In this document: piece after piece, positions 1,915 to 62,870 of the stretch
Layout: every line of letters starts with the position of its first letter
Numbering within the stretch: position 1 is the first letter of the stretch
Virus record (IMG/VR): IMGVR_UViG_3300014205_000002
Coordinates: 128,001-192,000 of that record
Source: a virus
Taxonomy: Duplodnaviria; Caudoviricetes
Reading direction: 5' to 3' (one strand)
DNA: 64,000 bases
The notes under the pieces: model-generated
Databases searched by the model: none
Told to the model about the DNA's origin: nothing
What the model saw: only the letters and a program-made list of their open reading frames with translations
Made by a program: the position numbers and the translations under genes

Positions 1915-2627
1915 CGCTTGCTCTGACGGTTGCGTTGTCTGTCGCGATCGTCTATGGGATGATGCTGCGGTTGCTCGCAGTGTCCGACGGTCTGAGCCGG
2001 ACGACACCGAGACCCATATCGCGAGTCAGCGCGGATCCAAGAGGCACCCCAGTGGGATTGCATATCACGGCGATCGTCGGCCCGATGTTCAGCGCGAAGA
2101 CGACCACGCTGGCGCGCATCATCAGCGCCTGTGGCGACCCGTCGAGGGCGGTATTCAAGCACCGGAAGGATGGTCGGACCAGTGGGTCGCTGAGCAGCCA
2201 TGACGCGACCCTCAGTGATACCATCCAGGCGACACCGATCCGCAGCCTGCATGAGGTGGCGGAGTACGTCGACGCCCAGCGCACGCAGTGGGTCTACATC
2301 GACGAAATTCAATGGTTCGAGCGGGACGACGCGGCCTCGGCGATCGCGCGCATGGCCTGCTATGCCAGACCTCGCAACCTGGTGGTCGCGGGGCTCGATC
2401 TCGACTTCCGCGGCGAGGAGTTTCCGACCACCCGCCTGTTCATGCAGCGCGCGAACGATCGCATCTGCCTGCTGGCGGTGTGCGCATGCTGCGGGGCTCC
2501 CGCGCCCATGAGCTACCTGCGCGCGGTGGTCACGGGCACAGAGGGCCCCGTGGGGGGAGCCGACCAGTACGAGCCGCGCTGCGTGGAGTGCCATGCCGCC
2601 GGAGTCACCCAGAAGGAAAATTCATGA
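1911..2627 (+). CDS. tdk: Thymidine kinase (type II)
   Basis: GPMFSAKTT, IDEIQWF, GLDLDFRGEEF, C-x2-C...YEPRC-x2-C; hydrophobic N-terminal extension makes the start uncertain. Confidence 0.92.
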   Translation: MTLALTVALSVAIVYGMMLRLLAVSDGLSRTTPRPISRVSADPRGTPVGLHITAIVGPMFSAKTTTLARIISACGDPSRAVFKHRKDGRTSGSLSSHDATLSDTIQATPIRSLHEVAEYVDAQRTQWVYIDEIQWFERDDAASAIARMACYARPRNLVVAGLDLDFRGEEFPTTRLFMQRANDRICLLAVCACCGAPAPMSYLRAVVTGTEGPVGGADQYEPRCVECHAAGVTQKENS

Positions 2628-3169
2628 TCACGATCGACCAAGACGCCGTACGCCGGGCGGTGAGGCAGCTGCTCGGTACGCCCGAGGAGCCGGGTCCGAC
2701 CTCGGCGGCGGAGCTGGTGGAAGCCACCGGCGGCACCATTGCCGACATCGAGGCGGGTCTACTAGGCGCACCTTTCCGGGCGGAGTTAGTGGGTGGCCTG
2801 ATCGGCGCGCTCGGCAGCTCGCCGACAGCGTTCGTGCGGGCGGCCGACGGCTACGCGATCCTGCCAGACGCGACCATCGATCGGTTCGGCGAGTCCCAGG
2901 CACAGCTGAGCGAGGCGCGCGCGGCGAACGCGCAGCTGATGTCCGAAGTGGGTAAGCACGTCTTGGAGGCCGAGGCGCAAGCACGCGAGATCGCCGCCCT
3001 CCAGACGCAGCTCAAGCTAGAGCAGGCCCAGCGCGCGGCCTACGAGAGCCAAAACCGCCTCCTGGAAGGCTTCATCAAGGAGGATCAGAAGCTCAAGGCG
3101 GAATGGCTGGAACGCAGCGAGGCGCGTGCGCGGGCCCCCTGGTACCAGCGCATCTGGTGGGCACTCTGA
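2624..3169 (+). CDS. Coiled-coil hypothetical protein ending in an amphipathic PWYQRIW tail
   Basis: ATGA overlap with tdk; heptad pattern. Confidence 0.65.
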   Translation: MITIDQDAVRRAVRQLLGTPEEPGPTSAAELVEATGGTIADIEAGLLGAPFRAELVGGLIGALGSSPTAFVRAADGYAILPDATIDRFGESQAQLSEARAANAQLMSEVGKHVLEAEAQAREIAALQTQLKLEQAQRAAYESQNRLLEGFIKEDQKLKAEWLERSEARARAPWYQRIWWAL

Positions 3170-3325
3170 TGCGGGACTGCCAGACCTGCCCGAGGCGGGC
3201 GTGTTGCGATCTTCTGGTGTGCCTGATCGACACACGGATGCCGCCCCCGCGCTATGAGCCGACCGTATTGGTCGGACCAACAGGCACTACTCCCGTTTCG
3301 GCGTAAGCCTCACGGCGACTCACAC

Positions 3326-3354
3326 AGGGGGCCCATGTGGCCCCCTTTTCGTTT
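3326..3354 (+). terminator. Rho-independent terminator
   Basis: AGGGGGCC-catgt-GGCCCCCT stem followed by TTTCGTTT. Confidence 0.7.
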
Positions 3355-3381
3355 GACCCCCAGGCGCAGGGCTGGTACAAC
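3353..3381 (+). promoter_or_regulatory. Sigma70-type promoter
   Basis: TTGACC-17 bp-TACAAC with TGn extension. Confidence 0.6.
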
Positions 3382-3667
3382 CGAAGCGTGGGGTTCCAAG
3401 ACTAAAGGAGCCCCGTGGGGCTCCTTCGATCCGGTGGCGCTCTGAACCCTGGTACCTGGGTGGAGCACCCCCCAAAAGGAGGCTCCTCCTAGAATTCCAG
3501 TCTCACATGGAGGCTGGTGGAGCCGGCCCTTGGCTCGCAGCGAGGACGATTCCCTGGACATTCCCAACCGCTTGACCGGAGTCCTGCGGTCGTTCCTGTC
3601 GCCGGGTGACCGGGCTCGGGAGCGAGGTTGCCTTGCGGCAAGGTCAGTATAGCAGAGGAGGATTACG

Positions 3668-4432
3668 ATGTCGTCAGCCACGACAAGCCAGGATCCCCAG
3701 CCGGAGCTGGGGACGAAGATCTGTACGAAGTGCAACACGCCGAAGTCGGTCGACTCGTTCAACTTCCGCAACAAAAAGAAGCGACTGCGCCAGAGTTGGT
3801 GCCGGATCTGTCAGCACAGCTCCAAGGGGTTGGTTCCGATCCATCCCAGCGATCACCAGATCCAGGACCAGTTTGCGCGGTTCGGCGATATCCAGATGCC
3901 GTCACCCAGCGATCTGATCGCCACACTAGCGGCCAATGCCGCCGAACAGGTAGCCGGCCCAGGGCCGCGTGTAGCGCCGCAGCCGGCAGTCGTTCATGCC
4001 GCTCCGCCGGCGGCCGTCATCACAGCGCCTGAGCCGTCCGAATCAAGCGAACCGCCGGTAATGGAGCGCGAGAGCGCGCTGCTGATGCTCGCGGACAAGC
4101 TCGTTGCGGCAACGGAGCGCGCCGCCCGGGCGGAGGCCCAGCTGGATGCCGCATTCAAACAGGTCGAGGTCTACCGCGCTCAGCTGGCGAGTGCCCAAAG
4201 AGCGGCAGAACTTGAGGCTCGCATCGTGAAGCTCGGTGAAGACGTGGGAACCTGGCAGCAGCTGGCCGAGGGTCATGATCTCGACATGCAGAAGCTGCGC
4301 GACGAGAATGTCCGACTCCAGAAAGAACTCACCGAGGCGAAGAAGCCCCCAACCCAGGTGGCGATCGTGCGTACGTACAGCGACGAGGAAAAGAGGCGGC
4401 TCGGCCCTCTCGGCGTCCCGGTCGGGAGTTGA
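3668..4432 (+). CDS. Zn-ribbon plus coiled-coil protein
   Basis: KICTKC...SWCRIC; SD GAGGAG. Confidence 0.75.
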   Translation: MSSATTSQDPQPELGTKICTKCNTPKSVDSFNFRNKKKRLRQSWCRICQHSSKGLVPIHPSDHQIQDQFARFGDIQMPSPSDLIATLAANAAEQVAGPGPRVAPQPAVVHAAPPAAVITAPEPSESSEPPVMERESALLMLADKLVAATERAARAEAQLDAAFKQVEVYRAQLASAQRAAELEARIVKLGEDVGTWQQLAEGHDLDMQKLRDENVRLQKELTEAKKPPTQVAIVRTYSDEEKRRLGPLGVPVGS

Positions 4433-4508
4433 CGCGCCGAACCCGACCGGGTCTGTCCTCACGGCCATTGTCCCCAAAAACGACGCTCTGGCGGAGTTCT
4501 TCATCCAC

Positions 4509-4898
4509 ATGGAGAAGGCCAAGACGGAGAACAAGCATGCGCGCACCTACACCAAGCTGATCCGGGCTGAGGTGGTCGGAAAGCTCGACCATAGCGCGCT
4601 CGATCCGAAGGCCGTGGCGCACTGGCGGCGCGCGTTCGACCTGGTGGTTGAGCATGTCCGCGACAGCACCTACGTGCGCCGCATGTTCTGGAAGCTCGTG
4701 TCGATCATGGAGAGTCCAGACACGATGGGCCAGCCCTATGGGGCCGGCAGCTACGGTTTTGACACGGGCACCCGCAAGGTGGTCGTCGGCAAGATGCGCG
4801 TGATCTTCCTGTACCGCGCAGGCGATCTCGACTTCAAGCACATCGACTTCCACGACGAGGCATACGAGCAGGCCGACAAGGCCAGAGGGGCAAAGTGA
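4509..4898 (+). CDS. RelE/ParE-like fold protein (putative)
   Basis: C-terminal GQP...RKVVVGKMRVIF...HIDFHDEAY pattern; start uncertain. Confidence 0.45.
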   Translation: MEKAKTENKHARTYTKLIRAEVVGKLDHSALDPKAVAHWRRAFDLVVEHVRDSTYVRRMFWKLVSIMESPDTMGQPYGAGSYGFDTGTRKVVVGKMRVIFLYRAGDLDFKHIDFHDEAYEQADKARGAK

Positions 4899-4993
4899 TC
4901 GGCCTCATGGGCGGCGCGGCGCTCGTCAGCCTCGCCGTGTATGCCCTCGTGATGATGCTTCCATCCCCAGAGGAGAAACCAGATGACCGATAA
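4895..4993 (+). CDS. 32-aa single-TM peptide
   Basis: GTGA overlap; translates to VIGLMGGAALVSLAVYALVMMLPSPEEKPDDR. Confidence 0.5.
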   Translation: MIGLMGGAALVSLAVYALVMMLPSPEEKPDDR

Positions 4994-5603
4994 GACAAAG
5001 CCAGACGACGCGTTGATCCTCAGCTTCGACGTCACGACCGTGTTCAGTATGGAGATGCCGATCGCGAACCCCGAGGGTCTGGAGAAAGAGGCGGTGCGCA
5101 AGCTCGCCGAGGATCATGTGCGGGGGCTCTTGCAGGGCCTCGGTGCCTACGTCCAGAGCATGCAGCGCCGCAGTGAGGACAAACCCACCGAGCAGCTGGT
5201 TATTACCTTGACCGGCACGCGCCTCCAGCACGCGCGCCAGCTCTGGTTCTCGTTCGACGAGCCCGAGACACCCGAGGATTACTATATCGGCTGGTCCTAC
5301 GATCGGCGTTGGAACGGCTGGGGCTCGCCCCTCTTTGAGAAGGCCGAGGCCGACCGCATGATGCTGCGCTTCAACGCGGAACTCCAGCGGAAGGACGCCA
5401 CTTACGACCCCGTCACCGAGACCTACTTCTTCCCCAGCTTCAACGACACCGAGTACCCCGAGGAGCCGCCGCACCCCGGCTACCCGAAGGAAACCCTCGC
5501 GCTGCCGGACGGCTCGACCCGGGAGGTCTACGCCATCGGCTCGGGGGAATGGTGCTGGAACGTCGACTATAAAGACCCGACCAAGGGGCCGGTGACACCG
5601 TGA
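4983..5603 (+). CDS. Hypothetical phage protein
   Basis: SD GAGGAG, operon packing. Confidence 0.7.
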   Translation: MTDKTKPDDALILSFDVTTVFSMEMPIANPEGLEKEAVRKLAEDHVRGLLQGLGAYVQSMQRRSEDKPTEQLVITLTGTRLQHARQLWFSFDEPETPEDYYIGWSYDRRWNGWGSPLFEKAEADRMMLRFNAELQRKDATYDPVTETYFFPSFNDTEYPEEPPHPGYPKETLALPDGSTREVYAIGSGEWCWNVDYKDPTKGPVTP

Positions 5604-5794
5604 TCGAGCGCGTAACCTTCGTGGTCTGCGACGCCCCCAACTGCCAGGAGCGGCTGGAGACCAGCGAGCAGGCGGGGGCTGCGCGGGCCGAGGCTCACAA
5701 GGAGGGCTGGACGCGCCGCCGTGGCATAGTCGGCCAGGCGATGTACGATTACTGTCCGCGCTGTGGGTTGGCGAACCCGACTGAGACAAAGTGA
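5600..5794 (+). CDS. Small Zn-finger protein
   Basis: C-x4-C...GW...DYCPRC; 4-bp overlaps. Confidence 0.65.
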   Translation: MIERVTFVVCDAPNCQERLETSEQAGAARAEAHKEGWTRRRGIVGQAMYDYCPRCGLANPTETK

Positions 5795-18051: not shown

Positions 18052-18377
18052 ACGTCAGGGAGGTCGCCCCGCTCGGCGTAAGCGGCGCGCACCTCCTTGA
18101 CGTAGCGGCGGCACGGATAGAAGTGCGGAACCGCCCGGGGCGGGAGGAGTTCCTCCTCCTTGGTCTTCGGGCGGACGAACCGCTGGGCCTTGTGGATCGT
18201 GACTCCGAAAATGCCAAAATTCCGAAACGTGACGGAAAGCCCGTCCCGCATGGCCTTGGCGAGCACGTCCAAGAAGGCGTCCAGGACAGTCTCTACGTCC
18301 TCCTGAGAGATCTGGGCGCGGTGAGAAACAGCCTGTATCAGGCGTCTTCGTGATAACGAGGGGCCATGCTTGTTCAT
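18048..18377 (-). CDS. HU/IHF family DNA-binding protein
   Basis: VTFRNFGIF...RPKTKE...PHF pattern; ATG 6 nt after a -10 box. Confidence 0.85.
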   Translation of the reverse strand: MNKHGPSLSRRRLIQAVSHRAQISQEDVETVLDAFLDVLAKAMRDGLSVTFRNFGIFGVTIHKAQRFVRPKTKEEELLPPRAVPHFYPCRRYVKEVRAAYAERGDLPDV

Positions 18378-18383
18378 GGAACC

Positions 18384-18412
18384 ATTATCCGCGCGGGTCG
18401 GACCAAGGTCAA
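18384..18412 (-). promoter_or_regulatory. Sigma70 promoter of the HU gene (probably leaderless mRNA)
   Basis: TTGACC-17-GATAAT on the minus strand. Confidence 0.7.
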
Positions 18413-18458: not shown

Positions 18459-18501
18459 ACTCTGATTACATGTTGCATTTGTAATCAGAGTGCGGTAATG
18501 T
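18459..18501 (+). promoter_or_regulatory. Promoter TTGCAT-17-TAATGT overlapped by a 12-bp-arm inverted repeat (operator)
   Basis: ACTCTGATTACA-N9-TGTAATCAGAGT at 18459-18491. Confidence 0.6.
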
Positions 18502-22616: not shown

Positions 22617-22662
22617 ATTATAGGGGGAGCGGCCGGATGGTCGGTCCACCGTGCCGTATAAT
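22617..22662. promoter_or_regulatory. Divergent -10 boxes (TATAAT on each strand) flanking a palindrome copy
   Basis: ATTATA 22617-22622, TATAAT 22657-22662, TGGTCGGTCCA 22638-22648. Confidence 0.55.
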
Positions 22663-30350: not shown

Positions 30351-30870
30351 GGGGGGCCTCCTGTCTGGGGTGACTCGCGCCAGCGAGCAGAGCGGCGATG
30401 ATGGGCTCGGTCGCGAGCAGGCGTTCACGCAGGCCCGCGGGTGCGCGCCGGCGGATGCCGCGGTAGCGAACACAGGGGCCTTCGGGCCAGAGCGCGACGC
30501 CGCTCAGGCCGGCGTGCTGGATCGTGGCCTCTGACTCCTCGACTAGTTCGTGGAACCAGGTGCCGAGCCGGGCAACCTCTTCAATATAGAAGGCGTCACA
30601 GCCCGTCGGATGCGCGATAAAGACCTGTTGGTCGGACCGGAAGATGCAGTGCTGTTTCTCGACCATCTGGCGGGCCAGGTTGATCACGCGCTGGCGTGTC
30701 TCGTGCTCCAGGGGCGGCATACGCGAGCGCGACGAGACCTCAACTGCGGCGAACCCCTCTTCGAGCAGGTAGGCGCGGGTGGCCGAAGCCGCCGACGCGA
30801 GGGTGTGGTCGCTCTCGTTGAAGAAGCGCGAGAACTCGCCCATGTTCGTCTTGACGGCGACCTCAATCAC
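30343..30870 (-). CDS. Hypothetical protein
   Basis: Operon packing. Confidence 0.6.
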   Translation of the reverse strand: MIEVAVKTNMGEFSRFFNESDHTLASAASATRAYLLEEGFAAVEVSSRSRMPPLEHETRQRVINLARQMVEKQHCIFRSDQQVFIAHPTGCDAFYIEEVARLGTWFHELVEESEATIQHAGLSGVALWPEGPCVRYRGIRRRAPAGLRERLLATEPIIAALLAGASHPRQEAPLG

Positions 30871-31824: not shown

Positions 31825-32678
31825 GTGCGATCGTTCCGCAGCGAGACCGTCGGTCGGGCCAGGCCGGGCGGCAGGGTCGGGAAGTCATTGAAGACGGCGG
31901 CGGAGATCTCGCGCGTGCCCGTCGAGATGTCGCCCGTCAGCCCCTTGGCCCGGTTGAACTCCTTGATCTTCTCGACCAGCTTGAGGTGATCCGACGTGAC
32001 GTGCTCGCGGATATAGACCGTGCCGTCCATGATCGCCTCCATCCGGAGCGTGCTCATGCCGCACTTATCGATCGCGCAGCGCCTGGCGTCGTCGGTCTTG
32101 GTGATAAAGATGCTCGGCTCCAAGTTACCAGGATCCGTCGAGTGGACGTCGAGGATGCCGTCCTTGTAGGCGTGGCCGAGACCCAGCTGTACGCAGGCTT
32201 GCAGGATCAGGGCATTGTTCGGAAGGCGGCAGTGGCACTGCGGCTCAAAGCTCGACTGCCCCTGCTTGCCGGACACGGTGAAGGTCTTGGTCTCCTTGGC
32301 GCGGTGCGGGCAGCTGAGGATCTTCGGCTCGGGCAGGCCCGCGAGCATGAGCAGCTGCTTGGTTTCGGCCACCACGATCTTGTAATCGTCGATATCGAAA
32401 CCGGGGTCGAGCCCCTGGCTTTTCAGTGCCGCACCGTCGGAAATATAGGGGGCCATATCGATCCCCACGGGGGTAGAACCGTAGGTCTCGCAGAGTGCGC
32501 GAATGTGGTTGACCACCGGCCAGATCAACTCCTGCATCCCCGTCCCGAAAGGGGCGGGCGGAATCAGGCCGGTCTTGGCGTGAATCTCCCTGGCGACGTC
32601 GGCCTTGAGGCGGCGCACCACGCCGTCGAGTTCGAAGAACACGGCCGTCTTCTTCTCGCCGAGATAGATCGCGGTCAT
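31821..32678 (-). CDS. GmhB/HisB-like HAD-fold protein with degenerate catalytic motifs
   Basis: AVFFELDGVV, SCPH, CHCRLP. Confidence 0.6.
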   Translation of the reverse strand: MTAIYLGEKKTAVFFELDGVVRRLKADVAREIHAKTGLIPPAPFGTGMQELIWPVVNHIRALCETYGSTPVGIDMAPYISDGAALKSQGLDPGFDIDDYKIVVAETKQLLMLAGLPEPKILSCPHRAKETKTFTVSGKQGQSSFEPQCHCRLPNNALILQACVQLGLGHAYKDGILDVHSTDPGNLEPSIFITKTDDARRCAIDKCGMSTLRMEAIMDGTVYIREHVTSDHLKLVEKIKEFNRAKGLTGDISTGTREISAAVFNDFPTLPPGLARPTVSLRNDRT

Positions 32679-32998
32679 ACATCCTCCTCGGGATGGTTCT
32701 TGGCTGGACCTCTGGTCCGACCAACCGAGCGTGAGAGCAGGAGCGTCGCCAGCCTCTGCCCAAACAGGCCGCTGGCCCCGTTCGCGTTGACCTCCTCGAT
32801 CAGGACGTCGAGCGCGAGCTGCATCAGCTGGCTCTTGTCGATCTCCTCGCGCATCTTAAGGGATAGCTGCATTTGTACGAGCCCGAAGTCTACGAGCTGC
32901 TGCTTGGAGAAGTAGAAGGTGCGGCGGATGTCGCACTTTTCATCGACTGGCCGGCGGTAGCTGGTGGCGTCGGGAAAGCCGTAAGGGGTAGTGGTCAA
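32675..32998 (-). CDS. Ribbon-helix-helix-like DNA-binding protein
   Basis: RRTFYF beta-strand plus DKSQLMQLALD helix; SD GGAGG before TTG. Confidence 0.55.
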   Translation of the reverse strand: MTTTPYGFPDATSYRRPVDEKCDIRRTFYFSKQQLVDFGLVQMQLSLKMREEIDKSQLMQLALDVLIEEVNANGASGLFGQRLATLLLSRSVGRTRGPAKNHPEEDV

Positions 32999-34450: not shown

Positions 34451-34477
34451 GGGTCTGACCAAACATTGGTCAGACCC
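34451..34477. repeat. Hairpin formed by two inverted copies of the dispersed palindrome
   Basis: GGGTCTGACCAA-aca-TTGGTCAGACCC. Confidence 0.8.
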
Positions 34478-35123: not shown

Positions 35124-36996
35124 GGGGCAGCTCCTTGGTTACAGCGAGTCCTGCGCGCTTGACGAAGGGAAGGAACTCGGGGACGGGGTGGAGGATGCGC
35201 TCGCCGAGCGCGATCCTGATCTGGTTACCCAGATGCCAGCCGAATAGCGGGGGTACCGCATTGCCGACCTGCCTGTATTGGGCCGAGCGGGGGCCCTGGA
35301 AGACCCAGTCGTCGGGGAAACTCTGGAGCCTCGCGGCTTCGCGCACGGTCAGCCGGCGCAGCCTGCGTGGCGGCGGAGCTGGTACGATGTGGGTGTGGTT
35401 GGCCCCGCCCGAGGCGACGATCGTCTGCGCGGGCTGGTCCATGTCCTGGACGCGACCACGGCCGTTGAAGATGGTCTCGGCGGGGTTTCCGGGCCGGGCC
35501 ATCAACTCCTTCGCGCGCTCCGAAGCGGGCACGATGGCGATCGCGTTGTCCTCGTGGTTGGGCACGGGCAGCAGGTTGGCATTGCCGCAGTCCTGCTCGG
35601 CGATGATGGTCTTCGCTGGTGCGTCCCAGCTCATGGCCGGATTACTCAGCTTACCCGCGAGGGCGCTGGGCCTAGGCGGCGAGGCCGGCTCGTGGTTGGG
35701 GACGTCACCCATGATGAAGTCGACGTTACCCGAGGTGTTGATCGTGCGGCCTGGCGCATCGGGATCGAGCAGCTTCATGCCCTGACCGACGTGCCCTGCG
35801 AGGATGGCCTCTTCATGCGTGCCCGTGTAGACGCTGGCCTCGTGGTTGGCGGGGATGGCCTGCTGGTGGTGGGCTCGTACGGTGTTGGCAGGCTTGTCCC
35901 AGGCGTGCAGGCCGTTGGGGCCGGCCCCGCGATCGGCGGCGTGCTCGATGTGCCTGATCTCACCGGGCGTGAGCGGGTGATTCACGTGGTTCTCGACCGG
36001 TAGCAGGTTCACGTTCCCCGAGCGCTGGTGGGCGATGATGCACGACGCGGGCTCGTCGAGCGCCATCGGAGCCTTCATCGACCAGTCGCTCTCGCCGGTG
36101 AGCGCGGAGGGTACCGGCGGGGGCGCGGCCTCATGGTTCTCGACGGGGATCAGGTTGTTGGTGCCGGACTCCTGCTTGGCGATGATCGTACGCGCGACCT
36201 GGTCGAGTTCCATCGGTGGGTGTTTCTGAGCCCAGGAGCTGTCGGCGATCGCCGCACATGGTGGCGGCGGAGGAGCTGGCTCATGGTTGGCGGCGGGGGC
36301 GAACGCGGGACCGTAAGGGGCCGGCAGATCGCTGATGGCCTGACGGACCGTGACCCATCTGCGCAGCGTACCGAAGAAGCCCGGAGTGGGAGTGTCCGCA
36401 TGCGTCGGCTTCGGCCAGGGGAAGAAGCTCTCGTCGCGTCGGCCGAAGAAGATCACGCGGATGCGCTTCTGGGGAACGCCGTAGTCGGCCATGTTGATCA
36501 TGCGGTACTCGACGCTGTAGCCGATGTCCCTGAAAGCCTGGAGGATCACGTCCTTGACCAGAGTCTGGTCGTCGTCGGTCTTCATCGTGAGTAGCCCCTT
36601 GACGTTCTCCATGACGAAACCCCACGGCTTGGCCTCGTCGACGACCCGTACAAACTGCCAGAACAGCTTGTTGCGCGGATCGTCCGCCTCGCGCTTGCCA
36701 GCGGTAGAGAACCCCTGGCAAGGTGGCCCGCCCACCACGAGGCGGGCCTGACCGGAAACCAGTCCTGCCGCCTCAAGGATGACCTCGGTGGGAATGGCGC
36801 AGATATCGCCCTTGAGCACGGGGATCCCCTGGCGGTTGTGGCGCAGCGTGTCGACGGCGTGCCCGTCGAGTTCGACCGCAACGCGCACGTCGAACCCCGC
36901 GGACTCCAGCCCGATATCCAGGCCCCCGGCCCCCGAGAACAGTGAGATGATCGGCATCGGCCGGTTGGTCGGACCGTGCATGGGGACGATGGTCAC
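35113..36996 (-). CDS. DNA (cytosine-5) methyltransferase with six tandem TRD-like modules
   Basis: SLFSGAGG, GGPPCQGFS, ENVKG, QKRIR, TVREAARLQSFP, QVGNAVPP. Confidence 0.95.
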   Translation of the reverse strand: MTIVPMHGPTNRPMPIISLFSGAGGLDIGLESAGFDVRVAVELDGHAVDTLRHNRQGIPVLKGDICAIPTEVILEAAGLVSGQARLVVGGPPCQGFSTAGKREADDPRNKLFWQFVRVVDEAKPWGFVMENVKGLLTMKTDDDQTLVKDVILQAFRDIGYSVEYRMINMADYGVPQKRIRVIFFGRRDESFFPWPKPTHADTPTPGFFGTLRRWVTVRQAISDLPAPYGPAFAPAANHEPAPPPPPCAAIADSSWAQKHPPMELDQVARTIIAKQESGTNNLIPVENHEAAPPPVPSALTGESDWSMKAPMALDEPASCIIAHQRSGNVNLLPVENHVNHPLTPGEIRHIEHAADRGAGPNGLHAWDKPANTVRAHHQQAIPANHEASVYTGTHEEAILAGHVGQGMKLLDPDAPGRTINTSGNVDFIMGDVPNHEPASPPRPSALAGKLSNPAMSWDAPAKTIIAEQDCGNANLLPVPNHEDNAIAIVPASERAKELMARPGNPAETIFNGRGRVQDMDQPAQTIVASGGANHTHIVPAPPPRRLRRLTVREAARLQSFPDDWVFQGPRSAQYRQVGNAVPPLFGWHLGNQIRIALGERILHPVPEFLPFVKRAGLAVTKELPHAR

Positions 36997-37049: not shown

Positions 37050-37832
37050 TCAGGATCCGCTCGCGGCGATGGACAGCGCCATCATGCGTACGGCCTGAAT
37101 GTGGGCCGGAATTGGTCGGTCCAGCCTTGCGGCCTCTTGCTCCTGGCGGCGCTTCTTGCGATCAGCGTAGCCGAACTCGTCCAGTGAACGGGCATCTATG
37201 CGCCAGTTGTGGCCGAACTTCCAGCCCTTCATCTGGCCCTTCTGGAGGGCAGTGAGTACATAGGCGCGCGGCCTGTCGAGCTTCTTCGCGGCTTCGGCAC
37301 AACCGACCCATGCGCTGGTGTGCTGGGGGTAGATCGTTTTGAGGATTGCCAGGGCTTCCTGCGTGACGAAGGCGAACGCCCCCTCGCCATAGGCTGGCAT
37401 GTTGAGCTTCGCGAGTTGGACGCGGATGCTATTGGGTGAGATGCCCAGTTCCCGTGCGACCATGGTGATATTTGGGTCTCCCTGGGCCTCTAGGGGGTTG
37501 AGTCGATCCTTGCGGATCTTCCAGGCCACCTGGCCGCCGGTAAACTTGGTGCCGAGTCGCGTGTTGATGTAGCGGGCAATCTTATGGGGCGGATACTTGC
37601 CGAGGAAGGTGTGTAGCAACTCCAGCGCGGCGGGGCGCTTCGCCCAGACGTCCTCATAGGGAGTGACTGGTACATACTTTTGCAGCGCCGACTGGCCGAA
37701 GGTGGCGTCATAGCGCTGGTTGAAGAGGGCGATTGTCTCAGCCCAGGTATGCCTGGTCCTGAGGTCGCACAGGTCGGCGATGATCGCGGGCGTCCACCGG
37801 AAGATCGCGTCACCTTTACGGGTGTGCATCAT
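37050..37832 (-). CDS. Multi-HTH DNA-binding protein (C-terminal excisionase-like HTH)
   Basis: VARELGISPNSIR; EAAKKLDR...GQMKGWKFGHNWRI. Confidence 0.7.
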   Translation of the reverse strand: MMHTRKGDAIFRWTPAIIADLCDLRTRHTWAETIALFNQRYDATFGQSALQKYVPVTPYEDVWAKRPAALELLHTFLGKYPPHKIARYINTRLGTKFTGGQVAWKIRKDRLNPLEAQGDPNITMVARELGISPNSIRVQLAKLNMPAYGEGAFAFVTQEALAILKTIYPQHTSAWVGCAEAAKKLDRPRAYVLTALQKGQMKGWKFGHNWRIDARSLDEFGYADRKKRRQEQEAARLDRPIPAHIQAVRMMALSIAASGS

Positions 37833-38653: not shown

Positions 38654-38739
38654 CGTGCCTCCCGCCATCTCTGGCTTGTTGGTCGGACCGGGAAGTGCAA
38701 TCTCTTGCGCCTCCCGGTCCTGGTGGTTTCAATGAGTTG

Positions 38740-44873: not shown

Positions 44874-45098
44874 CTAGCGGCTACCCAGGACCCGCAGGAC
44901 TCGACGCTCGGTTTGGCGATCCAGCGTTCCCGCAAAGAGCCGCCGCATCTCGTCTTCCATTCGCGCCGCTGTGGATTGTTGGTCCGACCAACGGGGGGAT
45001 TCAAGTATCCCATCTACGGGGGAGAAAGGCAACGTTACGTCTACCGAAACATTGGTCGGACCATCGTCAGAGCCGACGAAAAACGCATCACCTTTCAC
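44874..45098 (-). CDS. Small hypothetical protein
   Basis: SD GGAGG, GTGA overlap. Confidence 0.5.
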   Translation of the reverse strand: MKGDAFFVGSDDGPTNVSVDVTLPFSPVDGILESPRWSDQQSTAARMEDEMRRLFAGTLDRQTERRVLRVLGSR

Positions 45099-53429: not shown

Positions 53430-54569
53430 CTAGTAGCCTTCGTGTTCGTGGATGGTGTAGTACTTCGTCGCGAGCATGGCCGGACCAGGCTCAAGGACCA
53501 CGTCTTCATCGGGGTCGTCCTTGAGGATTGAGTCCCGCTCAAGCTCGGCTGAGGCCTTGCTTGGGCAGGTCATTGGCGAACTCTGCCGAGGGCCCACTTT
53601 GTAGGTTTGGAGCGTGGTGTTGCCGCATTCGCTGTGGAGCGCGCCGCCCGCGCCGACGCCCGTCCGAACGACCCAGCAGCCGGTGCGAATTGGCACCATT
53701 AGATTGCAGTGGAGGCAGCGGATTCCCTCCAAGCGCCCATGGCCGAAGACCGAGTAGCCAACACCCTCGTCGGTCTCGGCCGCACGACTGAGCGCCTTGC
53801 TATGAAGGTTGGCAGCAGCGGCATCGAGCCCGTACTGCTCGTGTGGCACGGGTGCCTCGACGCTGTATGAGTCGCCCTTGGCATAGTCGATACCGATCAC
53901 GCTCTCGGCGTTGAGGGCGATCGCGTCGATCTTCTCGGCACCAGGCAGGACGAAGCAGGCTGACAGCTGTCCAGTGGGCTTGCGCCTGGGCAGGAGGCGA
54001 TCGTCCACGCCGTAGAGGGTGAGCAATGCGAGGTCGCCGCCGGCGTGGTAGGTGACCTCGACCTGGGGGCCGCCCTCGACCTCGTGCTCGGCGTCGAGTA
54101 TCTCGATGCCCTGGGTCTTCATGAGGGTGACCAGACGCTTGGCCTGTCGAACCATTCCCGCAGGGTCGATGCCGATGTGAATGAAGCTCTCACTGGAACG
54201 CGCGCCCGCTTCAATCTCAACGGGGACGAAGCCAGCTCCGGTGAGCAGCTGCCAAGTTCTGAGGATATTGGCAGGCACTTCGTCGTGGGTGATGGGCTCC
54301 GCGAGAACGATGGCGCAGTCTTCCTCGTCGGTGCCCTCGAAGTCGAGCGCGTAGCACTCGTCGGCGATCGCGATGACCGCCTCCGCGCGCGAGTTGATCT
54401 TGCTGATGCGATCGTTGGTGATGTGGCAGTAGACCTTGCCCACTTCCTGAATGGCCGTGTGGTAGTCGAACAGCTCGCGCATCACCTTGTCGGGGTCGAG
54501 TCGGCCCGTCGCCGGGTCTTCCACGAGGGGCTTCCAGAAGCTGGCGTAATTCTTCTCGTAGTCTTGCAA
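53430..54569 (-). CDS. Mosaic hypothetical protein containing an RNR-derived peptide
   Basis: SD AAGGAG plus TTG; contains TGQLSACFVLP. Confidence 0.7.
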   Translation of the reverse strand: MQDYEKNYASFWKPLVEDPATGRLDPDKVMRELFDYHTAIQEVGKVYCHITNDRISKINSRAEAVIAIADECYALDFEGTDEEDCAIVLAEPITHDEVPANILRTWQLLTGAGFVPVEIEAGARSSESFIHIGIDPAGMVRQAKRLVTLMKTQGIEILDAEHEVEGGPQVEVTYHAGGDLALLTLYGVDDRLLPRRKPTGQLSACFVLPGAEKIDAIALNAESVIGIDYAKGDSYSVEAPVPHEQYGLDAAAANLHSKALSRAAETDEGVGYSVFGHGRLEGIRCLHCNLMVPIRTGCWVVRTGVGAGGALHSECGNTTLQTYKVGPRQSSPMTCPSKASAELERDSILKDDPDEDVVLEPGPAMLATKYYTIHEHEGY

Positions 54570-55162: not shown

Positions 55163-55206
55163 ATTATACGCCTATGTGCGACAGGAAGCAAGCAAGGTGG
55201 TATAAT
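55163..55206. promoter_or_regulatory. Overlapping divergent sigma70 promoters
   Basis: Minus strand TTGCTT-17-TATAAT (55191 to 55163); plus strand GCGACA-17-TATAAT with TGn (55178-55206). Confidence 0.75.
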
Positions 55207-55306
55207 CCGGGCGTATTCACCGGCAGACCCGTGCGGACCGTTGGTCATACCACGCGCACAATCAATGGATCAGTGTAACTCTGACGACAGAGAGGATGTG
55301 ATTGCG

Positions 55307-57015: not shown

Positions 57016-57287
57016 TGCAGGCGATCGCCATCTTCACCGACCAGGAGCACCTCGCTTATTTCAAGGGCTACGAGGATCGGTTCAGTGTGTTCAGCGGTGC
57101 GCGCGAGGGCTGGGTGCGCGCGAACTTTACCAAGGCCGAGGCGGAGGCGGTCCTGCTTAAAAGCGGGTTGGTAATCGCGGGAGGGGCATTCGACCTCGGG
57201 CTGACTACAGACATCCACACCAGGGCCGGTGAGCTTATTGGGACGGCACTTCCATTTATTGGTCAGGATGCCCAGCAAGCCTGCTAG
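57015..57287 (+). CDS. Hypothetical protein
   Basis: SD AAGGAG, TAATG coupling. Confidence 0.65.
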   Translation: MQAIAIFTDQEHLAYFKGYEDRFSVFSGAREGWVRANFTKAEAEAVLLKSGLVIAGGAFDLGLTTDIHTRAGELIGTALPFIGQDAQQAC

Positions 57288-57353
57288 ACATACAACCACT
57301 GGTTAGGGTAGAGTAAAACAACCAATGGTCTGACCATTGCCTCGGAGGTTCGG

Positions 57354-57611
57354 ATGCGCCCCATCGCCACAATTGTCGCCATTCTCCTGTACTTGCTCGT
57401 CAGCCAGGTCGCTGCGATTGCCTGGCTCGCGCTCGTGGGGGGATGGCTCCTGTGGCGCTACGCGCGATCGCAGGGTGGTAACTGCTCATGCTGCGGTGGC
57501 GACTACGTGGTCGAGTACGGCCCCGTCTTGAAACACAAGGGCGAGCACTACCGTCTGCGCTGCACCATCTGTTCCTCGCGAACCTGGCTGGGTGTTGGTA
57601 TGTCGACATGA
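57354..57611 (+). CDS. Membrane protein with Zn ribbon
   Basis: Hydrophobic N-terminus; CSCC...CTIC; SD GGAGG. Confidence 0.65.
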   Translation: MRPIATIVAILLYLLVSQVAAIAWLALVGGWLLWRYARSQGGNCSCCGGDYVVEYGPVLKHKGEHYRLRCTICSSRTWLGVGMST

Positions 57612-57847
57612 GCGAACCTGGGCCCTGCTGTTCGATCTGCAAGGACCTTGGCAGCGTGGTCGAAAAGGTTCACGGCCAGATCGTGCCAATCGAGCGCGAG
57701 AGCGTTGGTTGGCCGTACACGGCGATTGTGAAGCGCTGCCCGGTGTGCAGCCGTTGGTATCAGCGCCTCGCCAGGGCGTTCGCCCAACGGCTGTGTCGCT
57801 GGGCGAACGACTGCACAATCAGACAGTTCCACGCTTTCAGGCGATAG
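57608..57847 (+). CDS. Zn-ribbon protein
   Basis: CSIC...CPVC; ATGA overlap. Confidence 0.55.
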   Translation: MSEPGPCCSICKDLGSVVEKVHGQIVPIERESVGWPYTAIVKRCPVCSRWYQRLARAFAQRLCRWANDCTIRQFHAFRR

Positions 57848-57997
57848 ACACGTTGGTCGGACCAGGTGGGCGGATGCGCACTTTCGTTAGGAAGTCACGG
57901 CAGCATGTCTCAACGCAGTCAGTGGACTCTCGGGATCGACGGATCGTCTCAAGCCGGAGCGAGACCGCACTTAGGCGGCGAACGGAGCGTCGCAGCG

Positions 57998-58294
57998 ATG
58001 TCAAAGCATGTCATATTTACCGCGTGTGTCGTCGCGGCCCTCGCAAGCGGGGCGATCGCATTCCAATACCTGCGAGAGCGCAAGCCTTCGACGCTCAAGC
58101 GGGAGGTCGATGACCTGGCGCTGACGCGGGCCTTTGCGCGCGAGTTGCTACACCGCTGCCCTCGCTGTACTCACCGAATGACGATGGCCCGGCTGGCCCA
58201 TGTGACGACCGAAGGGGTCAAGCGGATGGTCTGGTGCGAGGCCTGTGGATACCAGTCCGCCATGCCCGAGCGCTTCTACGGAGCCAAGCCATGA
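57998..58294 (+). CDS. Membrane protein with Zn ribbon
   Basis: TM segment; CPRC...CEAC. Confidence 0.6.
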   Translation: MSKHVIFTACVVAALASGAIAFQYLRERKPSTLKREVDDLALTRAFARELLHRCPRCTHRMTMARLAHVTTEGVKRMVWCEACGYQSAMPERFYGAKP

Positions 58295-58599: not shown

Positions 58600-58609
58600 A
58601 AAGGACCTC

Positions 58610-58987: not shown

Positions 58988-59988
58988 CCAACAATATGAT
59001 CATCATCGGTGGAGGCCCTGCCGGCTACACCGCGGCCATCTATGCTGCGCGCGCAGGCCTGGAGCCTCTCGTCATCGAGGGGCCTCGTCCAGGCGGCCAG
59101 CTGACCATCACTACAGACGTGGAGAACTATCCAGGCTTTCTGGAGATCACAGGGCCGGAGCTGGTGCAGCGGATGCGTGAGCAAGCGGCGCACAACGGCG
59201 CGCGCTTCATGACCGACACCGTCCAGCGAGTCGAGTTCGGCAGCCACACCCACAAGGTCGAGACGGTCAGCGAGCAACTCGCCGCTCATTCGATCATCAT
59301 CGCCACAGGGGCCAATGCGAAGTGGTTGGGCATCCCCGGCGAGCAAGAGTACATGGGTAAGGGTGTGTCCGCCTGTGCGACCTGTGACGGGCCCATGCTC
59401 TCGCGGATGCTCGGCCCTGACGCCAGGATCGCAGTGATCGGCGGGGGTGATACCGCGTGCGAAGAGGCGCTCTACCTTGCGGGCTTACCTGGCTTCGGCC
59501 TCGTCTATCTGGTGGTACGCAGGGGTGAGATGCGCGCTTCGCGGATCATGCAGCAGCGCGTAATGAACCACCCGAAGATCCACATGATCTGGAATCGCGT
59601 GCCCCTGCGCTTTGAGGGCCACGAGACCCTGGAGTACCTAGCGATCACGGTACCCGACTGCCCGGGCGGACCTGGCCTCGGCGAGAGGCTCCATATCAAG
59701 GCAGCCTTCGTGGCGATCGGCCATGAGCCTGCCACGGCCTTCCTCAGGGACCAGGTCATCCTTGAAAACGGCTACATCATAACTGGTCATCACGGCCAGG
59801 TGGCCAGACACCAAGGGACGTTCAGCAATCCCGACGGCCCCTTCATTCCTGGCGTGTTCGCCGCCGGCGATTGCGTCGATCATGAGTTCCGCCAGGCGGT
59901 CACGGCGGCGGGGATGGGGTGCAAGGCAGCTATGCTCGCCGAGCGCTACCTCTCAGCGATGGACCCCTTCCCCCTCACCACAACCTAG
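58984..59988 (+). CDS. trxB: Thioredoxin reductase
   Basis: GGGPAG, GGQL, VENYPG, CATCDG, GGGDTA.EEA, FAAGD. Confidence 0.95.
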   Translation: MTNNMIIIGGGPAGYTAAIYAARAGLEPLVIEGPRPGGQLTITTDVENYPGFLEITGPELVQRMREQAAHNGARFMTDTVQRVEFGSHTHKVETVSEQLAAHSIIIATGANAKWLGIPGEQEYMGKGVSACATCDGPMLSRMLGPDARIAVIGGGDTACEEALYLAGLPGFGLVYLVVRRGEMRASRIMQQRVMNHPKIHMIWNRVPLRFEGHETLEYLAITVPDCPGGPGLGERLHIKAAFVAIGHEPATAFLRDQVILENGYIITGHHGQVARHQGTFSNPDGPFIPGVFAAGDCVDHEFRQAVTAAGMGCKAAMLAERYLSAMDPFPLTTT

Positions 59989-60001
59989 GAGGATTAATCC
60001 A

Positions 60002-60664
60002 GTGGAAACAACCAAGAGTGGTCTACCTATTCACACCGGCACGGGAACGCCCGAGGCCTACCTCGTGGGCGACATCTACGCCCACGCACTTGGCAACGCA
60101 GTGCGCCAGCTCCTGTTCATCATGGATGGCAGCACGCCCGGGGAAGAAGCGGTCGCAGCCGAAGTCATGGAGCGCCTCAAACTGGCGGGCGATGACATCG
60201 TCCGGTCGACCACGACGGACAATGGCGAGGTGCAGTCGAGCCGCGCCAACGTCGACTACACCGACGCCTGGGGCGGCATCACGCTCGCCGACGGTCGCTC
60301 CGTTTGCCCTGACGGGAAAGGCAGCGTGGAGATCCGCACCCCCGAACCGAAGGCAGACATTCACTACATCAACCCCCTGTGTGAGCGGGGCCCGGTGGCC
60401 TGCGAGGTGGTTGGCCTGACCCCCTCATACGATGAACTCAAGGAGGAGCGGGACACCGCTCGCCATCTGTTCAAGATACAGAACGACCAGGTTGGCAAAT
60501 TGGGTGACTACATCAACCTCGCCCTGACCTGCACGGACCCGACGGACGTCCAGGCGCTTCTCGCCGAGGCGATGGCTCCTGAGCCAACGGAGCCCGTTCG
60601 GCGTGATCGCCATGACGCCAGCATCTACTCAAAGATCAAGAACAGCAACCGCGGTTACGCCTGA
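60002..60664 (+). CDS. Hypothetical protein
   Basis: SD AGGAGG plus GTG. Confidence 0.65.
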   Translation: METTKSGLPIHTGTGTPEAYLVGDIYAHALGNAVRQLLFIMDGSTPGEEAVAAEVMERLKLAGDDIVRSTTTDNGEVQSSRANVDYTDAWGGITLADGRSVCPDGKGSVEIRTPEPKADIHYINPLCERGPVACEVVGLTPSYDELKEERDTARHLFKIQNDQVGKLGDYINLALTCTDPTDVQALLAEAMAPEPTEPVRRDRHDASIYSKIKNSNRGYA

Positions 60665-61332
60665 TGTACTACTGCCTGACATGCGGGACAAGCCTTTCCC
60701 GTATGGAGCTTCATTCCAACATGCAGTTCACGCCCTGTACCACCGATGGCTGCGGCGGTGAGTTGCTGTTCCTGGATGACATGGTGGCCGAAGCCGTCGT
60801 CCTGCTTAACGGCAAGGGCTATGCGACCGGCGATTCGTGTGGCGGCCACTTCGGTCGAGACGTGATCTCGTTCTACGTGAGCTTCGCGGAGGGTAGCACC
60901 CCTCCGCTGGCCGCGCTGCCCGATGACTTCGTGGTTGTGTCGCGCGATAGGGACAGTATCCACACCCGCCACAAGGATTGGGCTGATGGCCCACAGACGC
61001 CGCAGGTCATGCGTGTCAGTCAGACGTTCCTGGCGTGGGTCATCACCCTGCCAAAAGCCAACGAGCAGGGGGAGGTTGGCGTCATACCTGAGGCGTTCTG
61101 GCGTGTAGTCGAGGGCGTTCATCAGACTTACTGCGCCCGTCAGGTCGCGCTGCGCGGCCCGTTCCCATCGGTCCAAGATGCTGCCGCAGACGCTACGGCG
61201 CAAGGCTATAAGTTCGGCGAAGTCGAGTTCATAGACGGCCAGTCGCGCGAGGTGGTCGACGTGCCGATCCTACCAACCCCCCAAATGAGCTTCATTCCCC
61301 CCATTCCCTTGGAGGTTCAGCCCCTTGCGTAA
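60664..61332 (+). CDS. Hypothetical protein with N-terminal Cys cluster
   Basis: TGATG coupling. Confidence 0.65.
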   Translation: MYYCLTCGTSLSRMELHSNMQFTPCTTDGCGGELLFLDDMVAEAVVLLNGKGYATGDSCGGHFGRDVISFYVSFAEGSTPPLAALPDDFVVVSRDRDSIHTRHKDWADGPQTPQVMRVSQTFLAWVITLPKANEQGEVGVIPEAFWRVVEGVHQTYCARQVALRGPFPSVQDAAADATAQGYKFGEVEFIDGQSREVVDVPILPTPQMSFIPPIPLEVQPLA

Positions 61333-61573
61333 CTCCTTCTCGCACCAGGCCTCCCTCGCCATAGCTGTAGGCCTCTCCGCGATTGCCAGCATGGTTGCAC
61401 CACCACCGCCGCAGAGTTTCCGTGAGACCCAGGGCTATAGCCGCCCAAGCTATGGTCGCGGGCACAGCGGATCCAAGAAGGGCATCAACGTCGAGTGGCG
61501 TCGCCATAAGAATCGCCTCGCCAGGGCCGCCCGCAAGATCAATCGTCGCATCAAGCGCGGGATGCGGGCCTAG
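61325..61573 (+). CDS. Small Arg-rich protein
   Basis: SD GGAGG plus TTG. Confidence 0.55.
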   Translation: MRNSFSHQASLAIAVGLSAIASMVAPPPPQSFRETQGYSRPSYGRGHSGSKKGINVEWRRHKNRLARAARKINRRIKRGMRA

Positions 61574-61801
61574 ATGAAGAAGGGCCCCCAGAGCCTCTGC
61601 GACCTTGGCCCCTGGTTGGCAAAGGCGCTGACGTTCAAGCGGGGGCCTGGCTTCAAGTCGATCGGATTCGGCTGGTCGGTCGAGCGAGGAGCTTGGAAAT
61701 GCCGTATCATCTACGGACAGCAAGCGTATGAGGCTGAGGATGTCAAGCTCACCTCTGCGCTGACCAAGGCCCTGGACGCCTTATTGAAACGACCTCTGTA
61801 A
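61574..61801 (+). CDS. Hypothetical protein
   Basis: Abuts the upstream stop codon. Confidence 0.55.
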   Translation: MKKGPQSLCDLGPWLAKALTFKRGPGFKSIGFGWSVERGAWKCRIIYGQQAYEAEDVKLTSALTKALDALLKRPL

Positions 61802-61827
61802 CCCCCTGAGTATGAAAGGAATTCATC

Positions 61828-62223
61828 ATGCCCGATCCTGAAAACGCCCCCGCGCCCGATGTCGAAACCAAGTCGTTGGGCGACACCCTGACCGAAGCTG
61901 GTGAGGCGATCGTCGAAGCGATCGTCGAGGCGGTCGAGGCGGTCACCGATGCTGTAGACGAAGCCTTCGGCAGTGGCAGCACGACGCAGCCAGCGCCCAT
62001 CAAGGAGGGCGACCTCGTCAACTACTCGCTCGACTTGGACAGCCCCTACGCCGGCCAGGTGCGCGGCGCGATCGTGGTCAAGGTCTGGAATGCGACCTGC
62101 CTGAACCTGCGGGTATTCGCCGACGGCACCAACGACTATCCGCCCAATGTGTCCGACTGGAAGACGTCGATCGTCGAGGGTGCACCTGGTGCTCCGCGGA
62201 CCTGGCACCGCAAGGGCGTATAG
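61828..62223 (+). CDS. Hypothetical phage protein, acidic N-terminus
   Basis: SD AAGGA. Confidence 0.65.
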   Translation: MPDPENAPAPDVETKSLGDTLTEAGEAIVEAIVEAVEAVTDAVDEAFGSGSTTQPAPIKEGDLVNYSLDLDSPYAGQVRGAIVVKVWNATCLNLRVFADGTNDYPPNVSDWKTSIVEGAPGAPRTWHRKGV

Positions 62224-62226
62224 GTT

Positions 62227-62493
62227 ATGCCCAAGAAGCCTGGCCCCGAGAAGGGCGATCCACGCATGGTTGAGGCTGGGAAAAAGGGCGGCGCGATCAT
62301 GCGCGAGCGTGGCCCTGAGTTCTTCCGCGAGATCGGCAAGAAAGGCGGCCAGGCGACAAAGGACAAGCATGGGCCGGACTTCTTCTCCAAGATTGGCAAG
62401 AAGGGCGGACAGTCCATGAAGGCGGCTCGCGGCTCAGAGTTCTTTGCGGACATCGGCCGCAAGGGCGGGGCCACCGAGCGCAAGAAGTCGTGA
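62227..62493 (+). CDS. KGG-repeat (YciG/GsiB-like) stress protein
   Basis: Four G[KR]KGG repeats, with (H)GPEFF..IG-type units. Confidence 0.9.
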   Translation: MPKKPGPEKGDPRMVEAGKKGGAIMRERGPEFFREIGKKGGQATKDKHGPDFFSKIGKKGGQSMKAARGSEFFADIGRKGGATERKKS

Positions 62494-62870
62494 GCGCCGA
62501 ACCTGGACAGATGACCGTCAGCCGCTGGCTCCGCCTGGAGCTGGCGGCCCAGGTCAGCACCCAGGTGGACGCCTGCGTCCTGTTAGAGGCGATCGCCCGA
62601 CAGATACGCGTGACTTCAAACTGCTCACTCCGGTCCGACCAACCGCCCACGGAGGAGCAGGTCTCCTATCACCTCAACATGACGGGGCCCACGTTTCACG
62701 CCAAGTCCATGTTGCGGCTCGACATCATAGGCGTGGGCGATCGCGCAGCCATCGACGACCAGATTAACACCATGCTGGGGCGGCTTATCAAGGCGGTCGA
62801 CCAGGCGTACAGCGGGCACACAGGGCTGGCGCTCAGCGTCAAGGCCCTGCGCCACCCCGAGGAGGAATAA
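62490..62870 (+). CDS. Hypothetical protein
   Basis: GTGA overlap. Confidence 0.6.
   Translation: MSAEPGQMTVSRWLRLELAAQVSTQVDACVLLEAIARQIRVTSNCSLRSDQPPTEEQVSYHLNMTGPTFHAKSMLRLDIIGVGDRAAIDDQINTMLGRLIKAVDQAYSGHTGLALSVKALRHPEEE

Follow-up and report, generated by a model that had tools for sequence, protein, structure and literature searches.

Introduction

Stoperators, the immunity-repressor sites scattered over the genomes of the Cluster A mycobacteriophages, are asymmetric, oriented with transcription and serve lysogenic immunity. Dispersed sites of a different kind are carried by the phage-plasmid N15, which has sopC-like centromere sites together with SopAB, and host factors also have sites on phages, including LexA boxes, the NtcA sites of cyanophages and the CtrA sites of alphaproteobacterial phages. 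Among small dimeric regulators, the ribbon-helix-helix (RHH) proteins omega of pSM19035 and TraM read very short repeats or odd-length palindromes with the dyad on a base pair, and TraM on GANTC is a precedent for an RHH protein reading an odd-length palindrome. Here we describe a dispersed palindrome, TGGTCNGACCA, in a 64,000-base stretch (bases 128001-192000, here called the window) of the complete 208,264-bp virus record IMGVR_UViG_3300014205_000002, the genome of an uncultured jumbo phage with a 123-bp terminal overlap and a G+C content of 64%. The palindrome is 11 bases long and has a 5-1-5 layout with ten fixed bases and a free central base. It is present in excess, it is placed near promoters and gene starts and it is under selection as DNA. 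Very probably it is the operator of one two-fold symmetric DNA-binding protein, a repressor, and there is good support for a regulon of genes for replication and nucleotide metabolism in one sub-branch of a group of uncultured jumbo phages.

The phage sites share with the stoperators a number of two to three dozen copies, the use of one short site, a position in short operon gaps in many cases and a plausible roadblock function. Unlike the stoperators, the phage site is a perfect palindrome and is concentrated in one third of the genome, and in contrast to their lysogenic setting, lysogeny is not indicated here, the only integrase-family protein in the phage being Xer-like. As with the LexA, NtcA and CtrA sites, a host-type operator at phage promoters would tie phage development to the state of the host; those cases have an identified host factor, whereas the binder of the phage motif is a candidate only.

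The palindrome is overrepresented and placed near gene starts

Copies of the palindrome were counted in the window against dinucleotide shuffles and in the whole genome (G000) against a 5th-order Markov model. The window held seven exact copies as compared to 0.05 expected, with a shuffle maximum of 1, and 18 copies with at most one mismatch as compared to 2.08 expected. An earlier note on this window had listed seven exact and ten one-mismatch copies and had predicted well under one exact copy by chance. Every listed copy was recovered at its coordinates, an eleventh one-mismatch copy was found at 53477 and the prediction agreed with the shuffles. Genome-wide there were 9 exact copies (0.39 expected) and 34 copies with at most one mismatch (9.3 expected), so the Markov model, which the note had proposed as a check, fails to explain the counts. 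The excess was gone at two mismatches, where 109 copies were found genome-wide as compared to 117 expected. The note had also described an extension to TTGGTC...GACCAA. T was present at position -1 in 43% of half-sites as compared to 18% in the background, which makes the extension a tendency and not a rule.

All statements on coding and intergenic position use our own gene calls, made with a codon-usage score and a greedy choice of non-overlapping open reading frames (ORFs). This gave 258 genes and left 9.3% of the genome non-coding; no tRNA genes were found. Non-coding positions accounted for 7 of the 9 exact sites (p = 2e-6) and for 19 of the 34 sites with at most one mismatch (p = 1e-11). 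Start codons followed within 150 nt downstream of 21 of the 34 sites as compared to a background of 18% (p = 2e-8), and 20 of the 34 were inside a 66-kb block of replication and nucleotide genes at 128-194 kb (p = 0.001). The intergenic and promoter enrichment that the earlier note had asked to be checked is therefore strong genome-wide.

Sites in the window and their relation to promoters

The sites in the window and the features that bear on them are listed here by window position (aa, amino acids). In this list rel1 is an 80-kb Logan contig from a related phage that is syntenic with the window.

2171-2181: exact site TGGTCGGACCA within the thymidine kinase ORF (2052-2627, plus strand); rel1 has no coverage here
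3269-3279: exact site with the full extension TTGGTCGGACCAA, intergenic, 100 nt past the gene at 2624-3169
18384-18412, minus strand: putative HU promoter of sigma-70 type, TTGACC-N17-GATAAT, with 10 of 12 consensus matches
18395-18405: one-mismatch site that fills the 17-nt spacer of the HU promoter; same mismatch in rel1
22638-22648: one-mismatch site between divergent TATAAT boxes at 22617 (minus strand) and 22657 (plus strand)
30629-30639: one-mismatch site within a 175-aa ORF; the codons spell R-S-D-Q, with the rare CAA for Q
32675-32998, minus strand: predicted RHH protein of 107 aa, the best phage-encoded candidate binder
32713-32723: exact site inside the RHH gene, at its 3' end; the start of the next gene is 35 nt away
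34451-34477: pair of one-mismatch sites in the dut-SLT gap, spaced 16 nt apart
36966-36976: one-mismatch site that covers the first codons of the ORF for the C5 DNA methyltransferase
37113-37123: one-mismatch site within the multi-HTH (HTH_17) ORF, in its 3' part; missing in rel1 and could be chance
38680-38690: one-mismatch site in the gap past the ribonucleotide reductase gene; a 274-aa gene starts 27 nt further on
44980-44990: exact site TTGGTCCGACCAA, the proximal member of a pair 73 nt apart
45053-45063: exact site TTGGTCGGACCAT, the distal member of this pair; orthologous place kept in rel1
53477-53487: one-mismatch site TGGCCGGACCA, close to where a 379-aa ORF ends; the next gene follows after 51 nt; could be chance
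55242-55252: one-mismatch site in a roadblock position within a divergent control region; the rightward TATAAT (55201-55206) is 36 nt upstream of it
57326-57336: exact site, 17 nt before a small ORF (57354) and 12 nt past a weak promoter-like match at 57285-57314
57854-57864: exact site, 134 nt upstream of the gene at 57998
62631-62641: one-mismatch site within a 119-aa ORF, read as R-S-D-Q with CAA; identical in rel1

Most of the control positions that had been assigned to individual sites in the earlier note were confirmed. These were the spacer of the HU promoter, the space between the divergent -10 boxes at 22.6 kb, the position just downstream of the 55.2 kb promoter, the one next to a probable promoter at 57.3 kb, the pair in the dut-SLT gap and the copy in the 3' end of the RHH gene. 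The note had also placed a promoter at 38.7 kb, where a consensus promoter was looked for and none was found. The HU ATG lies exactly 6 nt after the GATAAT box (window 18377-18412, minus strand), and the HU mRNA is apparently leaderless as judged from this spacing. At 22.6 kb the site covers the -35 and spacer region of the rightward promoter. A perfect 17-bp palindrome, CAATGGTCTGACCATTG (57323-57339), is centred on the site at 57326 and is the longest symmetric version in the genome; the 710-nt "gap" around this site (57288-57997) probably contains small ORFs. The 44980/45053 pair is upstream of a gene run that encodes a 79-aa protein, a 117-aa protein, the Xer-like protein and ribonucleotide reductase. 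Many sites were found 28-60 nt before start codons in co-directional runs, as for the replication initiator, SSB, the gene after the RHH gene and the 274-aa gene.

The dut-SLT pair is an inverted repeat of 13-3-13 layout and folds into an RNA hairpin of -27.3 kcal/mol (z -4.25); it is absent from rel1. Because of the strong hairpin and this absence, the pair may be an RNA element instead of, or besides, an operator pair.

A conserved second element near the sites was looked for and none was found, with at most 0.5 bit in any flanking column. Lacking a partner box, the palindrome stands alone and is not part of a promoter, and a bipartite promoter was rejected as no conserved partner box occurs at a fixed distance. 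This bears on the proposal that the binder activates transcription, or recruits a phage RNA polymerase or sigma factor at middle promoters. The variant TGGTCGGTCCA is found 8-9 nt upstream of a TATAAT without a -35 box in two places, at 22657 and at genome position 4020, and the phage has matches to Sigma70_r2/r3 domains, both of which would suit such a role. The distances to core promoters vary, however, with sites in a spacer, 8-21 nt upstream or 36 nt downstream of a -10 box and within ORFs; there is no fixed partner element, and most promoters of the TATAATA class are without a site. We consider activation or recruitment quite improbable, and the variable placement relative to core promoters favours repression by occlusion or roadblock over activation.

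The TATAAT hexamers were also surveyed in their own right (genome 15997-99210; window 22617, 22657, 55163 and 55201), and 17 of 25 were non-coding. Most occur in the context ccTATAATAacctcgg, have no -35 box and are ahead of structural-region genes. They look like a promoter class specific to the phage.

Conservation of the sites in related phages

A megablast and two tblastn searches of deposited phages (50,697) found no relative of this phage, and scans of IMG/VR and JGI metagenomes using its 533-aa and 729-aa proteins gave no match. Relatives were obtained solely by exact-protein look-ups in Logan, ENA and JGI assemblies. The contig rel1, of which 60.7 kb was walked (L001, L003-L005, L051), encodes proteins 40-80% identical to those of the window. 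This 60.7 kb held 4 exact copies of the palindrome as compared to 0.11 expected and 14 copies with at most one mismatch as compared to 3.2 expected.

Seven sites were orthologous between the two phages: those in the HU spacer, over the first codons of the C5 methylase, in the 55-kb divergent region (55242, same position in rel1), at the distal position before the 79-aa gene, in the pre-SSB gap and within two ORFs. At these sites 64 of 70 fixed bases (91%) were identical as compared to 160 of 350 (46%) in the flanking 25 nt on either side (Fisher p = 9e-14), and the free central base differed in 5 of the 7 pairs. At the C5 methylase all ten fixed bases are kept in rel1, with a central-base change that turns Pro into Leu. 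The site at 30629 is exact at the same codons in rel1, where the proteins are 53% identical, and the protein that contains the site at 62631 is 47% identical to its rel1 counterpart. In these two ORF-internal sites, which are in unrelated proteins, the Gln codon is CAA in 4 of 4 cases; CAA makes up 11.6% of Gln codons in this genome. In both phages the two proteins share the reading frame across the motif, which gives the peptide (R/W)-S-D-Q.

Sites were also found to have moved within the same gap between the phages, both in the divergent gap between the 729-aa and 533-aa genes and in the gap past the ribonucleotide reductase gene, where the rel1 site is exact. Such movement in two gaps is classic binding-site turnover. 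The site at 32713 is exact at the same place of the RHH gene in a third contig (L064, 1.7 kb) and is degenerate in rel1, with 2 mismatches. Together these comparisons show selection acting on the DNA word itself.

More distant relatives (L060, L061, L062+L063 and L002, together 88 kb) had 3 one-mismatch copies as compared to 3.0 expected and thus no excess. The HU promoter TTGACC-N17-GATAAT and its apparently leaderless ATG are kept in four diverged phages (the one described here, L001, L060 and L062) with varying spacer sequence, and two relatives besides rel1 keep the HU promoter and not the site in its spacer. The motif is limited to one sub-branch of this group of phages. When DNA was scanned for the pattern of the HU promoter with its site, 33 viral contigs were returned, and the sole jumbo among them (231 kb) was not enriched, with 13 sites as compared to 21 for the reversed control.

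These results also weigh on the explanation that no operator protein exists and that the palindrome is a by-product, either of a methylation or repair bias as for the repeat HIP1 or of coding or RNA-structure constraint. The motif is 56-78% non-coding as compared to 12% for HIP1, which is evenly spread, a lone 5-1-5 palindrome cannot fold, the ten fixed bases are kept while the central base is free, and turnover within gaps keeps the presence of a site and not its position. The points in its favour are a HIP1-rich genome that encodes one C5 and one Dam methylase, the strong RNA hairpin of the dut-SLT pair and the RSDQ peptide common to the two coding copies. We regard a by-product as extremely unlikely.

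HIP1 and the probable host

The HIP1 core GCGATCGC was found in 120 copies in the phage genome as compared to 20-34 expected, and the strongest palindrome of the genome, GGCGATCGCC, with 43 copies as compared to 1.4-3.7 expected, has HIP1 as its core. These copies were evenly spread, with 14 of 120 (12%) in non-coding positions. HIP1 richness was shared by rel1 and the intermediate relatives L060-L063 and was not seen in the distant relative L002. Richness in HIP1 points to a cyanobacterial host (PMC5861425), and the probable host on this sequence signal is a cyanobacterial lineage with 60-67% G+C. The KGG stress protein was also used to look for the host, but its matches were scattered over Chloroflexota and archaea and were uninformative.

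Resemblance to operators of FadR-subfamily regulators

The palindrome closely resembles operators of FadR-subfamily GntR regulators. The LldR box of E. coli is AAnTGGTCnGACCAnTT (PMC10272880), and one dimer of C. glutamicum LldR binds TGGTCTGACCA (PMC2602784). For FadR the consensus is aaCTGGTCnGACC(T/A)Gtt (PMC9329746), and for PdhR the box is AATTGGTnnnACCAATT (PMC7660256). The operators of the subfamily follow the rule GT-M-N(0-1)-K-AC, typically with 3 nt separating GT and AC (PMC4494728). The phage word TGGTC-N-GACCA satisfies this rule and its TKGT/ACMA boxes, is letter for letter the LldR/FadR box and fits the PdhR box, a likeness that the earlier note had not pointed out. Besides their identical sequence, the FadR, LldR and PdhR operators and the phage sites have in common a compact palindrome, a promoter location and an occasional arrangement in pairs. 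They differ in that the former serve catabolic operons and the latter replication and nucleotide genes, in that the flanks of the phage sites are not A/T-rich, and in that FadR-type systems have a GntR/FCD regulator whereas no such domain was detectable in the phage. Six-frame searches of the complete phage genome found no GntR (PF00392, E <= 1) and no FCD (PF07729, E <= 10) domain; control genomes were matched.

The binder could accordingly be a metabolite-sensing host regulator of the FadR subfamily (LldR/PdhR/FadR-like), through which the metabolic state of the host would gate phage DNA metabolism. Beyond the match in sequence, this would fit with the missing GntR/FCD domain and with the limitation of the motif to a phage sub-branch, which may track the host. 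The probable host group, however, seldom has such regulators: the GntR regulator PlmA is common to all cyanobacteria and other GntR proteins were found in 22 of 234 only (PMC5083789). PlmA was itself rejected as the binder because its known element, GTTG-N13/14-CAAC, is different (PMC6191309). Other related phages that are HIP1-rich are also without the motif. Given a cyanobacterial host, the rarity of GntR proteins besides PlmA and the different PlmA element, we judge a host FadR-type binder unlikely. The fuller version of this proposal has a lytic jumbo phage without a GntR protein of its own carrying about 25 FadR/LldR/PdhR-type operators, through which a metabolite-sensing host repressor would time the start of DNA synthesis, a metabolic checkpoint taken over from the host; this we hold to be rather unlikely.

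Candidate binding proteins

A Pfam survey of the 203 called proteins of at most 330 residues returned as DNA binders an Xre-type helix-turn-helix (HTH) protein at 86.5 kb (genome 86492-86830), the HTH_17 multi-HTH protein, an AbrB/MazE-like protein, HU and sigma-factor domains. The earlier note had named the RHH, multi-HTH and Xer-like proteins as candidates. The first was supported as a ribbon-helix-helix dimer by modelling and is the best candidate, the second ranked lower and the third was rejected.

The RHH protein had nine relatives among 1.8 billion representative proteins. The family alignment contains the motif R-(A/R)-T-(F/H)-Y-(F/Y)-(S/T), a helix and K-S-E-L-M-R-x-A-L, in a beta-strand/helix/helix pattern, and 2 of 8 aligned homologues matched Pfam RHH_3 (best E = 7.5e-5). 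The protein itself had no Pfam match, and searches of the phage genome with RHH_3 and LexA_DNA_bind were negative. In a related phage, a 263-aa protein (L063 3150-3941) combines a LexA-type DNA-binding domain with a guanylate kinase domain.

An AlphaFold model of the RHH protein (pLDDT 70.6) places helices at residues 32-49 and 55-76 after an unstructured segment at 24-31. A Foldseek search of the PDB with this model found nothing at E <= 0.001, the eight rows at E 5-9 being unrelated folds, and a profile search of PDB sequences found nothing relevant. With an exhaustive aligner the neighbours were mostly RHH proteins (TraM, including PDB 3on0, NikR, PutA, ParD, TacA, AmrZ and pCXC100 ParB), at a weak Z of 3-5.3. 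Modelled as a homodimer the protein scored 0.69 as compared to 0.00 for the best control, a mark that was reached by 20 of 30 proteins solved as same-chain pairs and by 1 of 23 single chains. Contact agreement between the dimer runs was at least 94% and partner pLDDT at least 79. The symmetric contacts in the model were 27:27, 27:26 and 62:62, and in the predicted structure 27:27 and 62:62 are the contacts of an RHH dimer. The good score may reflect mere likeness of the model to solved RHH dimers.

With omega of pSM19035 and TraM on GANTC, which are global RHH regulators, the phage system would share a small RHH dimer as candidate reader of many promoters. The half-site centres of the phage motif are about 7 bp apart, which would fit two adjacent RHH dimers. 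Unlike omega and TraM, the phage RHH protein is a predicted binder, its own promoter is without a site and its family match is remote, through homologues only.

Weak structural likenesses also touch on the proposal of a dispersed centromere, or of a lattice for loading or compaction by a partition or nucleoid protein. pCXC100 ParB (Z 3.5) and McdB are among the weak structural neighbours of the RHH protein, and a language-model feature search with it listed a cluster with CB_ParB_C in 11% of members. The sites are dispersed palindromes, and N15 likewise has dispersed inverted repeats in a phage genome. Unlike N15, this phage has no ParA or ParB genes, with neither ParB_N (PF02195) nor ParA-type AAA_31 (PF13614) found in the complete genome at E <= 1, it has many more sites, and these follow promoters and gene starts and are clustered in one functional block. 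There is also no sign of plasmid-like maintenance. The N15-like centromere suggested in the earlier note found no support here, and a centromere or lattice is very improbable.

Close orthologues of the RHH protein (55-56% identity) are encoded in G000, rel1 and L064, and the motif is present in all three. This co-occurrence is confounded with relatedness because motif-free relatives also carry diverged RHH orthologues, and the link between protein and motif is weak.

RHH homologues on chromosomes adjoin dprA-topA in Cyanobacteriota and Sericytochromatia contigs. Upstream of them are the conserved, GC-rich palindromes GGTGACGNNCGTCACC and CCTGTCGACAGG (about 159 nt upstream in L066 and L076, about 150-170 nt in L070, L071, L072 and L074), with a form GGTGACG-NN-CGTCACC in which the two central bases vary. 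These palindromes are possible operators of this uncharacterised RHH family. In 94 kb of Cyanobacteriota-like contigs with RHH homologues there was one one-mismatch copy of the phage motif, a sample too small for a test of a host regulon.

The multi-HTH protein was ranked lower because an orthologue occurs in a motif-free relative. The Xer-like recombinase was rejected on site geometry. Xer-type recombinase sites have 11-13-bp arms around a 6-8-bp spacer, and a 5-1-5 palindrome offers no spacer for strand exchange. A low rank was given to the AbrB-like protein, which is also present in the motif-free L060 and has a different palindrome before its own gene. An inverted repeat unlike the motif, CTGATTACA-N9-TGTAATCAG (18463-18490), covers the region of the AbrB/MazE-like promoter. 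It is conserved in part in the relative and may be the operator of another regulator.

Discussion

The operator and regulon reading is well supported; repression itself we infer. We propose that one sequence-specific dimeric protein represses a regulon of about 25 sites, the targets of which would be HU, SSB, the replication initiator, the ribonucleotide reductase run, the C5 methylase, dUTPase/SLT and thymidine kinase. Where a site is in a promoter spacer or over a -35 box, the bound protein would block the binding of RNA polymerase. Where a site is past a -10 box or before a ribosome-binding site within an operon, it would act as a roadblock. The RHH protein, with a conserved site in the 3' end of its own gene, may be this repressor. 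We think the binder is more likely encoded by the phage than by the host, and we give a phage-encoded binder, with the RHH protein at 32675-32998 as first candidate, a slightly better than even chance. The earlier note had proposed an operator/roadblock regulon read by a phage protein. Promoter-proximal placement, conservation and turnover support the operator and roadblock part, while the phage origin of the binder stays a candidate only.

Several observations speak against a repressor regulon read by a phage-encoded RHH protein. The RHH operon has no upstream site even at two mismatches, which is unusual for a self-regulated repressor. Diverged RHH orthologues of about 30% identity, with a different beta-strand, occupy the same position in relatives without the motif. 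A FadR/LldR-type sequence would by its letters suit a GntR winged helix best, and the Pfam negatives for such a protein are weak evidence, the RHH protein having been missed by its own Pfam model. Chance would account for about 9 of the 34 sites that have at most one mismatch. The promoters are putative, being matches to consensus only, and the host assignment is based on HIP1 alone.

Little is known of gene regulation in uncultured jumbo phages, and the motif gives a concrete regulon to work with: an 11-bp site, about 25 targets, a defined block of genes and few candidate binders. To our knowledge this sequence has so far been known only as a GntR operator. If the phage RHH protein binds it, the phage would have a global regulator that acts on a GntR-type word, and two unrelated folds would have converged on the same sequence. 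If a host FadR-type sensor binds it instead, phage DNA synthesis would be coupled to host metabolism, and we know of no description of control of this kind in large lytic phages. With either binder, the site could mark this phage sub-branch and help to sort its genes into temporal classes.

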